Both the position numbers and the translations under genes were made by a program. Positions 2,153 to 14,317 of a DNA stretch of 64,000 nt are shown in pieces. The DNA comes from Candidatus Woesebacteria bacterium. GTDB taxonomy: Bacteria > Patescibacteriota > Microgenomatia > UBA8517. Within the stretch, counting starts at the first letter, position 1; each line of letters opens with the position of its first letter. The notes beneath the pieces were generated by a model. That model did no database searches. It was not told the origin of the DNA and saw nothing but the letters and a program-made list of their open reading frames with translations. The stretch spans positions 1,444-65,443 of the forward strand of contig JAFGPD010000010.1 in NCBI GenBank assembly GCA_016926185.1, given 5' to 3'.

Positions 2153-3601
2153 TTAATGGGTAATTATATCTTTTAACACTTTATTGAGCTTATTTCCATC
2201 CCACAATTCAACATTATTTGAAGATGCCAATTGTCTTGCACTTTTGGTAAATTTAGAGGTTGTGATGACCATAGCTCTGTCACATTTATAATGCTTTGTT
2301 GCTGCAACAGCTTCTTGAATTGCCTTATTGGTAACTGGCTTAGAGTATCTTTTTGCTTGTACCGCGATTTTTTCTCCTCCCTTTTTTATGATCAGATCAG
2401 CACCCTGGTCACCCGAAACAGGTGTTTTTACTACCAAGTGTCCAAGTTTTTTGAATAAATCTTGTAAAAGATCTTCGAATTCAATACCACTCAGATCATT
2501 TATTTTTCTACTAGAAAATTGGTTGGCAGAGGAACTTTTTCCCATTTTTAGTTCATTCTCGAAATTTTCAATCTCTTTTTGTTCTTCTTTTCTTTTTATT
2601 AAATCAATGATCTCTTCTTCCGGCAGGTCTTCGGTAGTAATATCCAGCTCTATAAATAATCGATTTAAAGTATAAGAAAATACCTCGTTGAAGTCCGTTT
2701 CGTACTCTCTGAGTGTTGGTATGGTGTCTTGGGTTTTCATTGCCGATAAACATGCTACAAAAGAAGTAACTACATCGTCTTTGGTAATAACATAACTTTC
2801 TGGTTCGTTAGATTTAGACTGTTTTAAATGAATAAATGTTGCTTCCCTGAGAGATCTGAATAAAGCTTCTTTCTGCGGACCCAGATTTATTGCTCTCAAT
2901 TTCTTGTGTTTATTCAGAAGCAGATCAGTAAGTTCCTCGTAATTTAAGCTGATGTCATTCTTTTCAAATATTGCCAACAGTTTTGGATAATCACTAAATA
3001 TGGTCAGCATCGATTCGAGCATGTCTTTGAATTGGCTATCCGGAGAGTCTACTTCCGGAAAACTCTGTTCTATTTCGATAATTTTATTACTGATAGTCAT
3101 TTTTATATTATCAATATCATTTAACCTTATCGCATTGAGAATAAATGGTGCTTTAGGAATAATGGCAAGTGAGGCAAAGTGTGCATTCCCAACTCTTTCG
3201 ATAAAAGATTTAAGAAAGTCTGTTTCAAGTTTTGCGATCTTCTCTTCCAGTTGTGTTATACGCAGTTTTTTTTCTTGTTCATTCTTTTTTATTTCATTTT
3301 TGATCTTTTCATAATTTTCTAAAGCAGAACTTTCTGAATCTTCTATGGAGATCTCTATACCATATTCACTTAAGAGCCTTTGGTTTAAAAGCGTAAAGGT
3401 GGACAACAGATCTTCTTCGGATGTTTCTTGATCCACTTCATCAATTAGTGTACGTATCAAAGCAAGTGTGATTTCATCCTGGGTTATCTCATAAAGATCA
3501 AGACTGCTTAGCCGGCTTTCTACTTTCGGTTTGACAATGTCTAGTAAATTCTCAAGGTGTTCAAGTGCTTTTTGTATTGCCATATCACGTTGGTTTGACA
3601 T
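2153..3601 (-). CDS. Mrr-like type IV restriction endonuclease catalytic domain fused to a ~350-aa N-terminal domain of unknown function
   Basis: C-terminal GADLIIKKGGEKIAVQAKRYSKP...VITTSKFTKSA...VELWDG matches the Mrr_cat PD-(D/E)xK-like core; N-terminal part is coiled-coil-rich with no recognised domain. Confidence 0.6.
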   Translation of the reverse strand: MSNQRDMAIQKALEHLENLLDIVKPKVESRLSSLDLYEITQDEITLALIRTLIDEVDQETSEEDLLSTFTLLNQRLLSEYGIEISIEDSESSALENYEKIKNEIKKNEQEKKLRITQLEEKIAKLETDFLKSFIERVGNAHFASLAIIPKAPFILNAIRLNDIDNIKMTISNKIIEIEQSFPEVDSPDSQFKDMLESMLTIFSDYPKLLAIFEKNDISLNYEELTDLLLNKHKKLRAINLGPQKEALFRSLREATFIHLKQSKSNEPESYVITKDDVVTSFVACLSAMKTQDTIPTLREYETDFNEVFSYTLNRLFIELDITTEDLPEEEIIDLIKRKEEQKEIENFENELKMGKSSSANQFSSRKINDLSGIEFEDLLQDLFKKLGHLVVKTPVSGDQGADLIIKKGGEKIAVQAKRYSKPVTNKAIQEAVAATKHYKCDRAMVITTSKFTKSARQLASSNNVELWDGNKLNKVLKDIITH

Positions 3602-3691
3602 TGCCTTATTTTAGCAAATAGGAGTAAATAAAAATGGAGAATCTTACGGTATATGATCAAAATAAATATTACTCGAAACCAACCTACACAT

Positions 3692-3720
3692 TTGACCCTA
3701 TAGTGGATAAGGGTATATAA
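3692..3720 (+). promoter_or_regulatory. TTGACC-N16/17-TATATA promoter box upstream of a 17-codon ORF and the GmrSD-like gene
   Basis: CATTTGACCCTATAGTGGATAAGGGTATATAA; same motif family as 1018, 6779, 7556 and 10738. Confidence 0.4.
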
Positions 3721-3825
3721 TTTACCCATATTCATGGCAAAAAAGAACACTTCTGGTAGAGAGAATCTAGAGATATTTGCATAGATTGCAAAAGATGTTA
3801 GAAATATGTGAGAATACAGAAGAAA

Positions 3826-5562
3826 ATGGAAATTATTACAGATAAGAAAAAACTTGTTGATCTGGTAACAGGTGCAAGAAAAGGAAAAGTTGTTTTGCCT
3901 CAATTTCAAAGATCATTTGTCTGGTCTTATGTAGATGTTGTTGATTTATTGGTTTCAATTTTTAATGGTTATTATGTAGGAAGCTTTTTAACTTTGAAGT
4001 GTGACAGTGAGAATGTACCCTTTGACTTTCGTACTATCGAGGGAGTTAATAAACAAAATGAAGATCTTAATCCAGAGGTGATGATACTGGATGGACAACA
4101 AAGGATTACTACACTTCATTATGTATTGTATGCGCCGGAAGAAATTACACTAAAGTACGCGAAATATCCTTATAGATTTTTTCTGAAACTTGATAGTTTG
4201 GTTAATGGTGATTTTGATAATGCAATTTATGGTATTAGATCAGACCAGTCAGAGAAATATATGTCACCCGAGTGGCAGTTCGAGAATAAAACCATTCCAT
4301 TCACAACACTTCAGGACTTTCAATCTTGGGATTCTTGGCTTGATAGTTACCAAGATTGGCTGCGCTCAATAGATGAAGAACAGTACGAAAATTATGTTAC
4401 CGCAGAGAGAGCAGACTGGAAGCAATCAATAAATGTATTTTTCGACATGGTTATACCAATAATCGAGATACCGAAAGTCAAAAGTGATGACGAAGACGGC
4501 GTAGCGGAAGTGTGCGCTATCTTTGAAAAAATTAACACAAAAGGTGTGAAATTATCGGTATTTGATTTGCTTACTGCCCGTCTTTTTAAATACAAAATTG
4601 ACCTGCATAAGTTATGGGAGGAAACACTAGAAACTTATAATTTGATAGATGATTTTTCGGAGGGGGAAAGTAACCCATATGGTATTTTTATTTTGAGAAT
4701 TATAGCGCTCATTAGAGGAGTCGATGTTAAAAGTAAAAATCTGATAAATTTGAAGCCAAATAACTTTGAGAATGATTGGGCGAACGCGTCAAAATATTTA
4801 CACAAAGCACTAAAAAGATTGATATCAACTAACGACGACGGTTTCGGCGTTTTTGATAAAAAATGGATGCCATATCCACCACTTCTCCCTGTATTATCTT
4901 CAGTTTTGTACCTTATCGATAAAAATAATTATAATAATTCCGCCTATAAAGCAATTAAAAAGTGGTATTGGGGATCTGTATTTGGCGAGAGATATCAAAG
5001 CGCTGTTGAAAGCAAGACAACATCGGATTTTAGAGAGATATCTCGCTACCTATCTGGTGAAGAAGTAAGCATTAAACTGTTTACTGAAATAGATGCAAAT
5101 ATAACTCTTAACGAACTATATGAAGTGAAGAGTGTCAACAGGATCAATTCAATTTATAAAGGAGTGATGAACTTATTAGCAATTAACCAAGCAAGAGATT
5201 TCCTGTTGCATGATAGTATTGAATTTCATGAACTTGATGATCACCACATTTTCCCGAAAGCATATTTGGCCAAAATTAAAGATGAGGAAGATCAGGTAAA
5301 GTATAAAGATAATTTGATAAATACAATCGTGAATAAAACCCTGATAAGTTATAGTACAAATAGAAAAATAAGTAAAAAGAAACCATCCGATTATGTAAAG
5401 GATAATAATTTAATTGTTCAGGCTTCTGTTAAAAGTATTTTGAAACGTCACTTTATCAATCAGGAAGCGTACGAGGCTATGTGTATGAATGATTATGAAA
5501 AATTTGTTAATGAGAGGAGTAACGTGTTAGTTAAAAAGATTAAGTCGCTTCTCCAAATTTGA
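3826..5562 (+). CDS. GmrSD-like type IV restriction enzyme (DUF262 ParB-like nuclease N-domain + DUF1524 HNH-like C-domain)
   Basis: LPQFQRSFVW and DGQQRITT (DUF262 signatures) near the N-terminus; HELDDHHIFPKAYL near the C-terminus (DUF1524-like); first in-frame ATG at 3826, although the ORF opens at a GTG at 3808. Confidence 0.75.
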   Translation: MEIITDKKKLVDLVTGARKGKVVLPQFQRSFVWSYVDVVDLLVSIFNGYYVGSFLTLKCDSENVPFDFRTIEGVNKQNEDLNPEVMILDGQQRITTLHYVLYAPEEITLKYAKYPYRFFLKLDSLVNGDFDNAIYGIRSDQSEKYMSPEWQFENKTIPFTTLQDFQSWDSWLDSYQDWLRSIDEEQYENYVTAERADWKQSINVFFDMVIPIIEIPKVKSDDEDGVAEVCAIFEKINTKGVKLSVFDLLTARLFKYKIDLHKLWEETLETYNLIDDFSEGESNPYGIFILRIIALIRGVDVKSKNLINLKPNNFENDWANASKYLHKALKRLISTNDDGFGVFDKKWMPYPPLLPVLSSVLYLIDKNNYNNSAYKAIKKWYWGSVFGERYQSAVESKTTSDFREISRYLSGEEVSIKLFTEIDANITLNELYEVKSVNRINSIYKGVMNLLAINQARDFLLHDSIEFHELDDHHIFPKAYLAKIKDEEDQVKYKDNLINTIVNKTLISYSTNRKISKKKPSDYVKDNNLIVQASVKSILKRHFINQEAYEAMCMNDYEKFVNERSNVLVKKIKSLLQI

Positions 5563-6767: not shown

Positions 6768-6778
6768 ATTTTCCCAAT

Positions 6779-6807
6779 TTGACCCCATAATGTGTTGGAT
6801 GTAATAT
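6779..6807 (+). promoter_or_regulatory. TTGACC-N17-TAATAT promoter 7 nt upstream of the ATG at 6815
   Basis: CAATTTGACCCCATAATGTGTTGGATGTAATAT. Confidence 0.4.
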
Positions 6808-7555: not shown

Positions 7556-7584
7556 TTGACCCCATAGTCTTATCTAAGTATAAT
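7556..7584 (+). promoter_or_regulatory. TTGACC-N17-TATAAT promoter 10 nt upstream of the ATG at 7595
   Basis: CAATTTGACCCCATAGTCTTATCTAAGTATAAT. Confidence 0.45.
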
Positions 7585-10737: not shown

Positions 10738-10766
10738 TTGACCCTATAATATATTTGAGTTAAAAT
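10738..10766 (+). promoter_or_regulatory. TTGACC-N17-TAAAAT promoter 7 nt upstream of the ATG at 10774
   Basis: Near-identical to the 1018-1046 box. Confidence 0.45.
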
Positions 10767-12608: not shown

Positions 12609-13076
12609 ATGAACAATTACAGATCTGACAGAGATAGAGGAAGAAACTTCAGAAGAAACTCCGATGATAGAGGAGGAAGACGTGAAATGTTTGATGCCGT
12701 TTGTGCTAACTGTGGAAACGATTGCAAAATTCCTTTCCAGCCACGAAATGATAAACCTGTATACTGCAGTGATTGTTTTGAAAAAATGGGTGGCGGTGAT
12801 GATAGGAATTCAGGGAGGAGATCCCGACGCGATGACTCACGAAGGACAAGCACGAGCGGATTTAGATCTGGCGGTTTTGATAAGAATGAATTCGAGAAAC
12901 TCAATAAAGGTATAGAAGCGATGAATAAAAAGCTTGACAAGATAATAATATTGCTTTCTCCTGCCGACGTTAAAGAAAAGTCAGAACCGGAAGCTAAAAA
13001 GAAAAAAGAAGCACCAAAAGAAAAAGCTCTAAAAACCAAAAAACCTGCAAAGAAAGAAAAAAAGGAAAGTAAATAA
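12609..13076 (+). CDS. RG-rich / zinc-ribbon / Lys-rich small protein, possibly a detached C-terminal module of the helicase
   Basis: N-terminal RSDRDRGRNFRR...RGGRRE, CxxC-x17-CxxC (CANCGNDCKIPFQPRNDKPVYCSDC), C-terminal KKKKEAPKEKALKTKKPAKKEKKE. Confidence 0.5.
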   Translation: MNNYRSDRDRGRNFRRNSDDRGGRREMFDAVCANCGNDCKIPFQPRNDKPVYCSDCFEKMGGGDDRNSGRRSRRDDSRRTSTSGFRSGGFDKNEFEKLNKGIEAMNKKLDKIIILLSPADVKEKSEPEAKKKKEAPKEKALKTKKPAKKEKKESK

Positions 13077-13452
13077 ATTTTCTTATCTTCATATTTAAAC
13101 TAATTTTTTTTGACCAAAGCTAAAAAGTTGACCGAAAGTTACTTATAAAACTACACGTCCAATAAGAATAATTTAGTCAATTAAATTAGCATTATTTATG
13201 GTAATATTGAATTATCATTAACGAACAAACTACCGAGAAACTAATTGAACAATTTGAAAAAAAGGGAGGTCGGATCAATAGATACTACCTTTCAAGACCT
13301 ATATTGAAAGGCCCGGCTCTTGTATATCTTAAAGGTTGGTACCGCGGCAGCAATCTTCGCGATGCAGTTATCAGAGCCCTGAAAAAAGATTAACTTCCAT
13401 TATATAAAATATTAATTATCTGATCCTGCTCTTTCTAAAGACAATTTGTAGT

Positions 13453-13481
13453 TTGACCGAAGGATAGGGCAAAGGTAAAAT
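13453..13481 (+). promoter_or_regulatory. TTGACC-N17-TAAAAT promoter upstream of a 28-codon uORF and the Cas4-like gene
   Basis: AGTTTGACCGAAGGATAGGGCAAAGGTAAAAT. Confidence 0.4.
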
Positions 13482-13567
13482 AACATGCAGATGTCAAAGC
13501 ATTACCCCCCTTCGTCTTTAGTCATACTAAAGACTACGGAAGGGCAGGCAATCCAAAACATACAATT

Positions 13568-14317
13568 ATGAGCAAATACTATAATCCTAAAAGAGGAAGT
13601 GATTGGAATTACGGAGGCAGGAACTGGAAACTGAGCCGATCAAAGCTTGAACTTTTTCTTGAATGTCCAAAGTGTTTTTATCTTGATAATAAGTTGGGGA
13701 CCAAAAGACCTCCCGGGTATCCCTTTAACTTAAATACAGCTGTTGATACTCTTTTGAAAAAGGAATTCGATATCTTGCGTGCAAAAGGAGAAAAACATCC
13801 TTTGCAGAAAGAATATGGAGTGGATGCAGTTCCTGTTCCACATGAGGATTTGGATGAGTGGCGGGATAATTTTAAAGGTGTCGCAATCACTCACGAAAAA
13901 ACTGGGATGATCGTCACTGGAGCGATCGATGATCTTTGGATCGATTCCAATGACAACTATATCGTTGTAGATTATAAATCGACTTCGACAGACGAACAAA
14001 TTACGGAGCTTACAAAGGACCATCATGAAAGCTATAAAAGGCAGATGGAGATATATCAGTGGCTGCTTCGGCAAAAGGGATATAAAGTCTCTGACAAAGG
14101 ATATTTTGTTTACTGTAATGGGCGCACTGATGTTGAGGCATTTGATGGGAAGATCGAGTTTGATGTTACGTTGATCGAGTATGTTGGAGATGACAGTTGG
14201 GTTGAGAATACCATTATTGCAGCCCATAAATGTTTGGAGTCGGATGATATCCCTAAGTCCGATGAAGACTGTGATTATTGTGCCTATCGTAAAACTGTCG
14301 AGAAATTAGAAAAATAA
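13568..14317 (+). CDS. Cas4/RecB-like PD-(D/E)xK nuclease with a Cys4 cluster (solitary; no cas genes nearby)
   Basis: ECPKCFYL at the N-terminus, IDDLWID...IVVDYKST nuclease core, C-terminal C...CDYCAY, as in Cas4/AddB-type Fe-S nucleases. Confidence 0.6.
   Translation: MSKYYNPKRGSDWNYGGRNWKLSRSKLELFLECPKCFYLDNKLGTKRPPGYPFNLNTAVDTLLKKEFDILRAKGEKHPLQKEYGVDAVPVPHEDLDEWRDNFKGVAITHEKTGMIVTGAIDDLWIDSNDNYIVVDYKSTSTDEQITELTKDHHESYKRQMEIYQWLLRQKGYKVSDKGYFVYCNGRTDVEAFDGKIEFDVTLIEYVGDDSWVENTIIAAHKCLESDDIPKSDEDCDYCAYRKTVEKLEK

Follow-up and report, generated by a model that had tools for sequence, protein, structure and literature searches.

A stand-alone RecB-type nuclease with paired cysteines in Candidatus Woesebacteria, and the short reading frame that overlaps its start codon

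Is the gene that follows a short upstream open reading frame (uORF) in a Candidatus Woesebacteria genome a solitary Cas4 with a part in defence, and do the uORF and its hairpin regulate it? The stretch of DNA analysed here, which we call the window, spans 64 kb of this member of the Patescibacteria (CPR), with a G+C content of 36.6%. An original prediction made from the letters of the window had proposed a Cas4-like nuclease in a phage or defence context, translationally coupled to the uORF and under regulated expression. Direct reading of the sequence bore out the two ORFs and the ATGA in which the stop codon of the first overlaps the start codon of the second (Table 1). The explanation that we consider probable as a whole, though by no means secure, differs in function: a housekeeping nuclease with a 2+2 cysteine arrangement would be preceded by a uORF private to this genome, which would be translated in the leaderless manner and followed by re-initiation at AUG 13568.

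Table 1. Coordinates of the nuclease gene, its motifs and its leader in the window
Feature	Position	Strand	Details
-35 hexamer TTGACC	13453-13458	+	with the -10 hexamer, 10/12 match, 17-nt spacer
-10 hexamer TAAAAT	13476-13481	+	3 nt from its end to ATG 13485, 9 nt to ATG 13491
Short uORF MQMSKHYPPSSLVILKTTEGQAIQNIQL	13485-13571	+	28 codons from ATG 13485, 26 from in-frame ATG 13491; no Pfam match
Stem-loop inside the uORF	13505-13548	+	dG -23.9 kcal/mol, z = -3.07, 0/200 dinucleotide shuffles as stable
Palindrome core TCTTTAGT-cat-ACTAAAGA	13515-13533	+	inverted repeat, 8+8 perfect, 3-nt spacer
ATGA overlap of uORF TGA (13569-13571) with nuclease ATG (13568-13570)	13568-13571	+	read from the sequence
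Nuclease ORF	13568-14317	+	249 aa, RecB-type PD-(D/E)XK; Patescibacteria-wide family
N-terminal CxxC, CPKC (C33, C36)	13664-13675	+	half of the predicted Cys4 metal site; invariant in the 47-sequence alignment, 81/85 in the extended family
Catalytic core D122 (IDDLW) and D135-x-K137 (VVDYK)	13931-13978	+	invariant; 81-84/85 in the extended family
QxxxY motif, Q159...Y163	14042-14056	+	typical of the RecB family; from family alignments
C-terminal CxxC, CDYC (C235, C238)	14270-14281	+	no third Cys 5-6 residues on

Family, active site and cysteine pattern of the nuclease

The nuclease gene is intact and belongs to the RecB-type PD-(D/E)XK nucleases, within the RecB-like branch of PF12705 (PDDEXK_1), which was its top Pfam match (4.9e-14, 53.3 bits, cut-off 22). 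The sequence is identical to a protein from Candidatus Woesebacteria bacterium recorded as 'PD-(D/E)XK nuclease family protein'. A homologue search returned at least 8000 significant matches, of which the best 120 share 64-78% identity with the query, are nearly always about 249 aa long and, where an organism is named, belong to lineages of Patescibacteria (Magasanikbacteria and Parcubacteria among them). In a library clustered at 50% identity, the number of matching clusters was 267 at E <= 1e-30 and rose to 1077 at E <= 1e-10. The family is large and strongly conserved across Patescibacteria. Nine residues (D122, D135, K137, Q159, Y163, C33, C36, C235 and C238) were invariant in an alignment of 47 sequences and were conserved at more than 90% in 84 more distant representatives; D135 and K137 are those of the PD-(D/E)xK core that the original prediction had picked out in IVVDYKST, and that assignment stands.

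The structural model of the nuclease is confident (pLDDT 90.1), and its structural matches are RecB-family proteins with a RecB-like fold. The predicted fold is about equidistant from Cas4, Dna2, MGME1 and RecE. Among solved structures, phmmer detected no relatives, and the family profile gave only spurious or marginal matches. By analogy with other members of the fold, the predicted activity is most likely that of a metal-dependent exonuclease acting on DNA ends or flaps. Fusion partners within the family (DUF2779, TIR with GYF, NUDIX and HD) were considered as a clue to function and set aside as too heterogeneous.

The ligands of canonical Cas4 and AddB are one N-terminal and three C-terminal cysteines (PMC3466216). 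In its alignments the present family carries a family-wide variant with two cysteines at either end: this 2+2 arrangement was found in 71 of the 84 representatives, and a C-terminal CxxCx4-6C in none (0/84). Position 244, where a third C-terminal ligand would sit, is V, R or A, and positions 241-245 are never Cys in the family alignments. Among the cysteines that the original prediction had listed, the CPKC and CDYC pairs are conserved, whereas C222, given there as the 'C...' ahead of CDYC, is not; C183 likewise varies across the family. In the model the conserved cysteines lie at the junction of the N-terminal helices and where the last helix begins, and we infer that they form a predicted Cys4 site holding the N-terminal and C-terminal helices together in the way of Cas4, AddB, Dna2 and DUF3799. 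By the same analogy the metal could be either Fe-S or Zn, and Zn is a genuine alternative; the related structure 3L0A holds Zn at the equivalent cysteine site (PMC3466216). The literature that we searched on these nucleases contained no description of the 2+2 arrangement, which offers a simple marker for the clade and poses the question of Fe-S versus Zn.

Relation to Cas4 and genomic surroundings

We compared the nuclease with Cas4 in four respects and found agreement in one, the RecB-type active site (D, D/ExK, QxxxY) together with the RecB-like fold. It departs from Cas4 in the other three, namely the curated score threshold, the cysteine pattern and linkage to cas genes or CRISPR. The NCBIfam Cas4 equivalog model TIGR00372 scored 38.4 bits against a cut-off of 65, and PF01930 (Cas_Cas4) was marginal at 24.4 bits against a cut-off of 22.7, with the match confined to residues 126-242. 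The PADLOC Cas4 models matched at 1e-11 to 1e-6, and the top PHROG was a family without assigned function. Relative to CRISPR-associated Cas4 (TIGR00372/PF01930; SSO0001 4IC1, Pcal_0546 4R5Q and type I-C 8D3L), the nuclease is about 40 residues longer at 14-21% identity, one cysteine ligand is shifted from the C-terminal CxxCx5C to the N-terminal CxxC, and a cas1/cas2/CRISPR neighbourhood is lacking. On the curated threshold, the cysteine pattern and the linkage, the nuclease does not qualify as a Cas4.

Likeness in sequence to the 'iron-staple' domains of AddB, AdnAB, Dna2 and Exo5 and to the Zn-binding DUF3799 exonuclease 3L0A is confined to the catalytic motifs. The nuclease differs from this group in being a single-domain protein whose helicase partner is neither fused nor steadily adjacent, and in its 2+2 spacing. 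It probably works, by analogy, like the Cys4-stapled RecB group formed by Cas4, AddB, Dna2, Exo5 and DUF3799. A search of the literature for the RecBCD/AddAB content of Patescibacteria returned nothing specific.

Solo Cas4-like genes are over-represented in CPR genomes without CRISPR, have evolved mainly vertically under ordinary purifying selection, and have been given defence as one possible role (Hudaiberdiev et al. 2017, PMC5704561). The nuclease belongs to this documented class of stand-alone Cas4-like CPR genes. Like those genes, which include PF12705 members, it is a stand-alone RecB-type enzyme with four conserved cysteines and lies outside CRISPR-cas loci, in small genomes mostly without CRISPR. 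It differs in that the published solo-Cas4 set was defined by PF01930/COG1468, whereas the nuclease fits PF12705 far better (53 versus 24 bits) and has its cysteines in 2+2 order.

The neighbours of the nuclease in the window encode a VWA protein, a DEAD-box helicase, a treble-clef zinc-finger protein, VanW, DUF2130 and EamA. Scans of the 64 kb for tandem or CRISPR-like arrays, tRNAs and Rfam families came back empty, and the ORFs scanned showed no Cas1 or Cas2 domains, in agreement with the original prediction, which had reported neither cas1/cas2 nor CRISPR repeats. Among the 98 genes flanking the nuclease in about 50 related loci, no cas family recurred. Across 57 related loci, no neighbour family was present in more than seven. 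The 98 immediately flanking ORFs comprised UDG (7), ATP-cone/Mrr_cat (5), NUDIX (4), GreA/B (3) and MgsA/RarA (2), with all others at two or fewer, so that even the top family, UDG at 7/98, represents weak enrichment. One sub-clade retains the order MnmA, ATP-cone protein, nuclease and UDG. The original prediction had set a housekeeping RecB paralogue with conserved synteny as its own counter-case; conservation of the family was found, but not conservation of synteny.

Given the UDG, ATP-cone/Mrr_cat, NUDIX and MgsA/RarA neighbours and the NUDIX fusion, the evidence leans towards DNA maintenance, and within it slightly towards repair or nucleotide sanitation. We infer that the nuclease is a chromosomal housekeeping enzyme of DNA maintenance and not a part of adaptation or defence. 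The competing explanation, in which it is a solo Cas4 of an uncharacterised defence pathway, acting with Mrr/GmrSD or serving in trans a CRISPR adaptation module encoded at another place in the genome, strikes us as very improbable. It can point to the window's restriction genes Mrr_cat (2153-3601) and GmrSD (3808-5562), 8-11 kb upstream, to one relative (L057) whose gene comes immediately behind type I R-M and Shedu genes, to the Mrr_cat genes at 5 of the 98 flanks, to one TIR-fused family member, and to the possibility raised in PMC5704561. However, five unrelated genes stand between the restriction genes of the window and the nuclease, and the neighbours are mostly housekeeping genes. CRISPR arrays and recurrent cas1/cas2 were found neither in the window nor in the 57 loci, and the NCBIfam score and the 2+2 cysteines, in place of 1+3 (PMC3466216), likewise count against a Cas4. 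Conservation is, moreover, very high and length constant from lineage to lineage, unlike what is seen in arms-race genes. The phage or defence context of the original prediction thus gives way to a lineage-wide, strongly conserved gene among heterogeneous and mostly housekeeping neighbours (UDG, ATP-cone/Mrr_cat and NUDIX). If our main reading is right, the family, failing the tests for Cas4, acts like a core DNA-maintenance gene of Patescibacteria, and the JGI label on its relatives, 'CRISPR/Cas system-associated exonuclease Cas4', is likely a mis-annotation.

Three further observations concern the surroundings. A plasmid homologue (Flagellatimonas, 46% identity) lies mostly among hypothetical proteins. 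A coding-like frame at 13211-13390 had no Pfam match; counterparts in related loci and homologues among 5.8 billion proteins were likewise absent. Internal repeats in the spacer at 13050-13700 were short and at chance level only.

Predicted promoter and leaderless-type gene starts

The promoter upstream of the uORF was evaluated against the rest of the window. The pattern TTGACC-N17/18-TA[AT]AAT has five exact sites in the window against 0.1 expected, all of them intergenic and on the + strand. Each has an ATG 3-12 nt further on, and three of these five ATGs open ORFs of 89-221 aa (starts 1055, 7595 and 10774). The promoter at 13453-13481 is very probably real by these sequence measures, and the predicted transcription start is at about 13487-13490.

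The same layout recurs at gene starts in general. Of the 56 starts in the window, 20 have a -10 box (>=5/6 matches) at a distance of 3-12 nt upstream, compared with 6.7% of controls (odds ratio 7.7, p = 7e-10), and a close -10 box precedes 16 of 52 orthologue nuclease starts, compared with 5.9% of controls. Shine-Dalgarno (SD)-like motifs precede 3-4 of the 56 starts; in the count with controls the figure was 3 of 56, and 11.5% of control ATGs had such a motif. About a third to half of the 56 genes have neither an SD nor a close -10 box. With SD motifs not enriched and -10 boxes near start codons, the genome appears to be of the leaderless type. A literature search on leaderless translation in Patescibacteria found nothing specific. 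That leaderless-type starts dominate in a CPR genome without SD enrichment matters for gene calling in such organisms and sets the terms for asking how genes that do have a 5' UTR are still translated.

At gene starts in the window the gap between -10 box and ATG is 4-11 nt, with a mode of 6; a gap of 9 occurs in four genes and a gap of 3 in none. Of the two in-frame ATGs of the uORF, 13491 is the likelier start, in a leaderless or near-leaderless fashion, and it is laid out as the window's leaderless-type gene starts are. The leaderless start that the original prediction had allowed for at this ATG is upheld, with a consensus promoter ending 9 nt before it. The nuclease ATG at 13568 has neither an SD nor a properly spaced -10 box. 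A TACAAT at 13561-13566 was considered as a promoter for a leaderless start there and rejected: it ends 1 nt before the ATG, outside the 4-11 nt range, and has no -35 hexamer.

Probable translation, conservation and possible origin of the upstream reading frame

Because AUG 13491 stands 9 nt behind a strong promoter, like the gene starts of a leaderless genome, the uORF is probably translated. Under our preferred explanation, transcription would start at about 13487-13490, and ribosomes would enter at AUG 13491, the 5'-proximal one, for a translation of 26 codons. This passage would melt the hairpin; upon termination at UGA 13569-13571, some ribosomes would re-initiate at the overlapping AUG 13568. 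The uORF may in this way hand ribosomes to the nuclease start. Coupling may also be unnecessary, since SD-less internal initiation is required for many genes and AUG 13568 is unstructured. The arrangement resembles known AUGA coupling systems, in which the upstream stop likewise overlaps the downstream start and the downstream gene lacks an SD, and leaderless mRNAs, in which the 5'-proximal AUG likewise stands directly behind a -10 box. It differs from AUGA coupling in that the upstream cistron is not a gene but an unconserved ORF of 26-28 codons without a homologue. Moreover, an SD is missing from nearly all genes of this genome, so the SD-less nuclease is no specific argument for coupling.

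We then compared the leader with related loci. The uORF, the leader sequence, the promoter position and the hairpin had no counterpart in 56 related loci, and among 50 GTDB loci the window alone has a short ORF whose stop falls at the start of the nuclease. The closest loci (L052/53, L055, L056 and L057 at 73-74% protein identity, and L002 at 71%) had no uORF, no similar leader sequence and no stable upstream fold; in L055 and L056 the ATGA is present, but the frame has no start codon. The uORF thus appears to be private to the Woesebacteria genome of the window. Selection on it cannot be shown, because it occurs in none of the 56 related loci, none of which is closer than 74% protein identity. 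The original prediction had itself named lack of uORF conservation as evidence against it, and on this count it did not hold up. We regard the uORF as a lineage-private by-product that would have come with a promoter 77 nt upstream of the nuclease gene, and not as a conserved regulatory leader peptide. As a feature private to one metagenome-assembled genome, its practical importance is modest.

The beginning of the uORF resembles that of the nuclease. Read from 13491, it starts MSKHYPP, where the family has MSKYYNP, and a match to S-K-[YF]-Y-N-P at four or more positions follows just two of the window's 1,925 ATGs, 13568 (6/6) and 13491 (4/6); this test was chosen after the match had been noticed. 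In many orthologues the promoter stands immediately before MSKYYNP. We tentatively suggest, as an idea that falls short of probable, that the uORF start is a relic of the nuclease's ancestral leaderless start. The likeness is limited to the first 7 codons, and a decayed tandem copy of the first 26 codons was rejected as the source: the local DNA alignment score was reached by 196 of 2000 shuffles, and the global score by 466 of 3000 shuffles and by 523 of 1919 other ATG-started 77-mers. In addition, nhmmer profiles of orthologue 5' ends missed the uORF, and a 27-nt PWM placed it at rank 73 of about 128,000 positions.

By itself, the uORF is within chance expectation, as frames of at least 20 codons end at an ATGA, GTGA or TTGA start in 10 of the 27 such genes in the window; the promoter just ahead of it is not. 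A serious alternative, though in our judgement rather unlikely, is that the uORF arose by chance within an unremarkable 5' UTR some 80 nt long (mRNA from ~13488), with AUG 13568 initiating independently and without an SD and the hairpin either stabilising the 5' end or serving no function. The frequency of such frames and the absence of the uORF from the 56 loci fit this account, as do the rarity of SDs, the share of genes with neither an SD nor a close -10 box, which must still be translated, and the A-rich, unpaired surroundings of AUG 13568. However, an AUG with a strong -10 box 9 nt ahead of it is laid out like a real gene start and would be hard for ribosomes to skip, and two coincidences would be needed, the precise ATGA overlap and a start reading MSK.Y.P.

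The hairpin announced in the original prediction is present and significantly stable (Table 1), and we asked what it implies for regulation. In one account, the uORF and hairpin form a regulatory leader, such as an attenuator or leader-peptide switch responding for example to DNA damage or translation stress, or the palindrome is a repressor operator. The stability of the hairpin, the perfect palindrome at roughly +25 to +45 of the predicted transcript and the overlap of stop and start codons are in keeping with it. We nevertheless give this account hardly any credence. The element is found in no relative, and no alternative pairing that sequesters AUG 13568 was found in the leader folds; the AUG is unpaired in an A-rich stretch in both the MFE and centroid folds. 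The absence of a U-tract after the stem shows that it is not an intrinsic terminator, and the peptide has no run of rare codons or sensing feature. A palindrome serving as operator or regulon site (e.g., an SOS box) was rejected: it has one exact copy in the 64 kb, its relaxed pattern occurs 10 times against 8 expected by chance, and it is absent upstream of orthologues. A known RNA element in the leader was likewise rejected, with no Rfam match at gathering thresholds in the window and none at E <= 1 in 13050-13650. Of the original proposal that the coupled uORF and hairpin point to regulated expression, the coupling and leaderless start thus gain mechanistic support, whereas regulation does not (uORF in 0/56 loci).

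Returning to translational hand-over, a stronger version of our preferred explanation would have the nuclease gene parted by 77 nt from its leaderless promoter in a genome that has mostly abandoned SD initiation. It would make the 26-codon ORF a leaderless 'ferry', its start a relic, with no task but to move 70S ribosomes through the hairpin to the AUGA, and the nuclease the founding member of a 2+2-cysteine clade and a core DNA-end-processing enzyme of Patescibacteria. We consider this version, taken as a whole, improbable. Were it true, leaderless genomes in which a gene gains a 5' UTR would have a general way out in such an ORF. Elsewhere in the window, a 16-codon ORF between a promoter at 3692 and the GmrSD gene is a second candidate 'ferry'.

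Gene starts and a recurrent promoter motif

Leaderless-type gene starts appear to predominate in this genome, as judged from the genes of the window. A -10 box lies 4-11 nt upstream of 20 of the 56 gene starts, compared with 6.7% of control ATGs, and SD-like motifs were detected at 3-4 of the 56, without enrichment over control ATGs. Starts of this type bear on gene calling in CPR genomes.

We also found an extended promoter motif, TTGACCC[TC]ATA[AG]T...TA[AT]AAT, that recurs upstream of several genes between 1 and 11 kb, a region containing Mrr_cat and GmrSD restriction genes, a VWA protein and small ORFs. This motif may represent a shared regulatory element or an extended -35 element. The promoter of the uORF, the short ORF whose stop overlaps the nuclease start, contains TTGACC and lacks the extension.

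The two restriction-type genes are divergently oriented and located 8-11 kb upstream of the nuclease gene. The layout seen at the uORF, in which a short ORF separates a strong promoter from a gene, has a second example at window positions 3692-3830: a copy of the extended motif precedes a 16-codon ORF (MAKKNTSGRENLEIFA), after which the GmrSD-type gene begins with GTG.

Features of the window and of related loci carrying members of the nuclease family (window positions unless a locus is named)
Feature	Position	Strand	Remark
Long protein, Mrr_cat domain at C-terminus	2153-3601	-	Restriction-type defence gene
GmrSD_N (DUF262) enzyme	3808-5562	+	Restriction-type defence gene
16-codon ORF	3734 (ATG) to 3784 (end of stop)		Upstream of GmrSD-type gene
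Extended promoter motif copies	1018-1046, 3692-3721, 7556-7584, 10738-10766; also about 6776-6790		
Leaderless-type starts (examples)	80, 6815, 7595, 14373, 16552, 40698		
60-codon open frame	13211-13390	+	Ends in TEKLIEQFEKKGGRINRYYLSRPILKGPALVYLKGWYRGSNLRDAVIRALKKD*
36-nt direct repeat and copy	12996-13061		Within zinc-finger gene
Treble-clef zinc-finger protein	12609-13076		Just upstream of spacer
MltG-like-MnmA-ATP-cone/Mrr_cat-nuclease-UDG order	About 3100-5500 in each locus		L010, L015, L016, L036, L044, L050

Synteny and members of the nuclease family

The sole recurrent synteny found for the nuclease family was a tightly packed gene order kept in one Patescibacteria sub-clade, comprising an MltG-like gene, MnmA, an ATP-cone/Mrr_cat-like protein, the nuclease and a family-4-type UDG. 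In the related locus L001, the orthologue from Magasanikbacteria, 70% identical, has the sequence ATA TCA CAA TAC TAG AAC... at 4001-4030: ATA stands where the start codon should be, and codon 5 is an in-frame TAG. Either this gene is a pseudogene or starts later, or the sequence contains an error. The upstream region of this orthologue shares the 12-mer CAGGCAATCCAA with the leader in the window. A further member of 334 aa (L058; NZ_CP092105.1, 136246-137250), which aligns to 91% of the query at 46% identity, comes from a gammaproteobacterium, Flagellatimonas centrodinii. Its gene sits on a 147-kb plasmid, surrounded by hypothetical genes and with a large helicase-related gene nearby. The nuclease family is therefore not restricted to Patescibacteria.

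Sequences upstream of the nuclease leader

The protein-like 60-codon open frame has no ATG, GTG or TTG start before 13304. A 7-codon ORF (MVILNYH*) begins with ATG at 13199, one frame off, and a 1-nt shift could link the two. Comparison with Pfam, with the related loci and with 5.8 billion proteins gave no domain match, counterpart or homologue, respectively, for this frame, which could represent an orphan gene or a frameshifted pseudogene or have arisen by chance. Further upstream, the treble-clef zinc-finger protein has its C-terminal tail encoded by a lysine-rich direct repeat of 36 nt (AAAAAGAAAAAAGAAGCACCAAAAGAAAAA) together with a copy at 73% identity.
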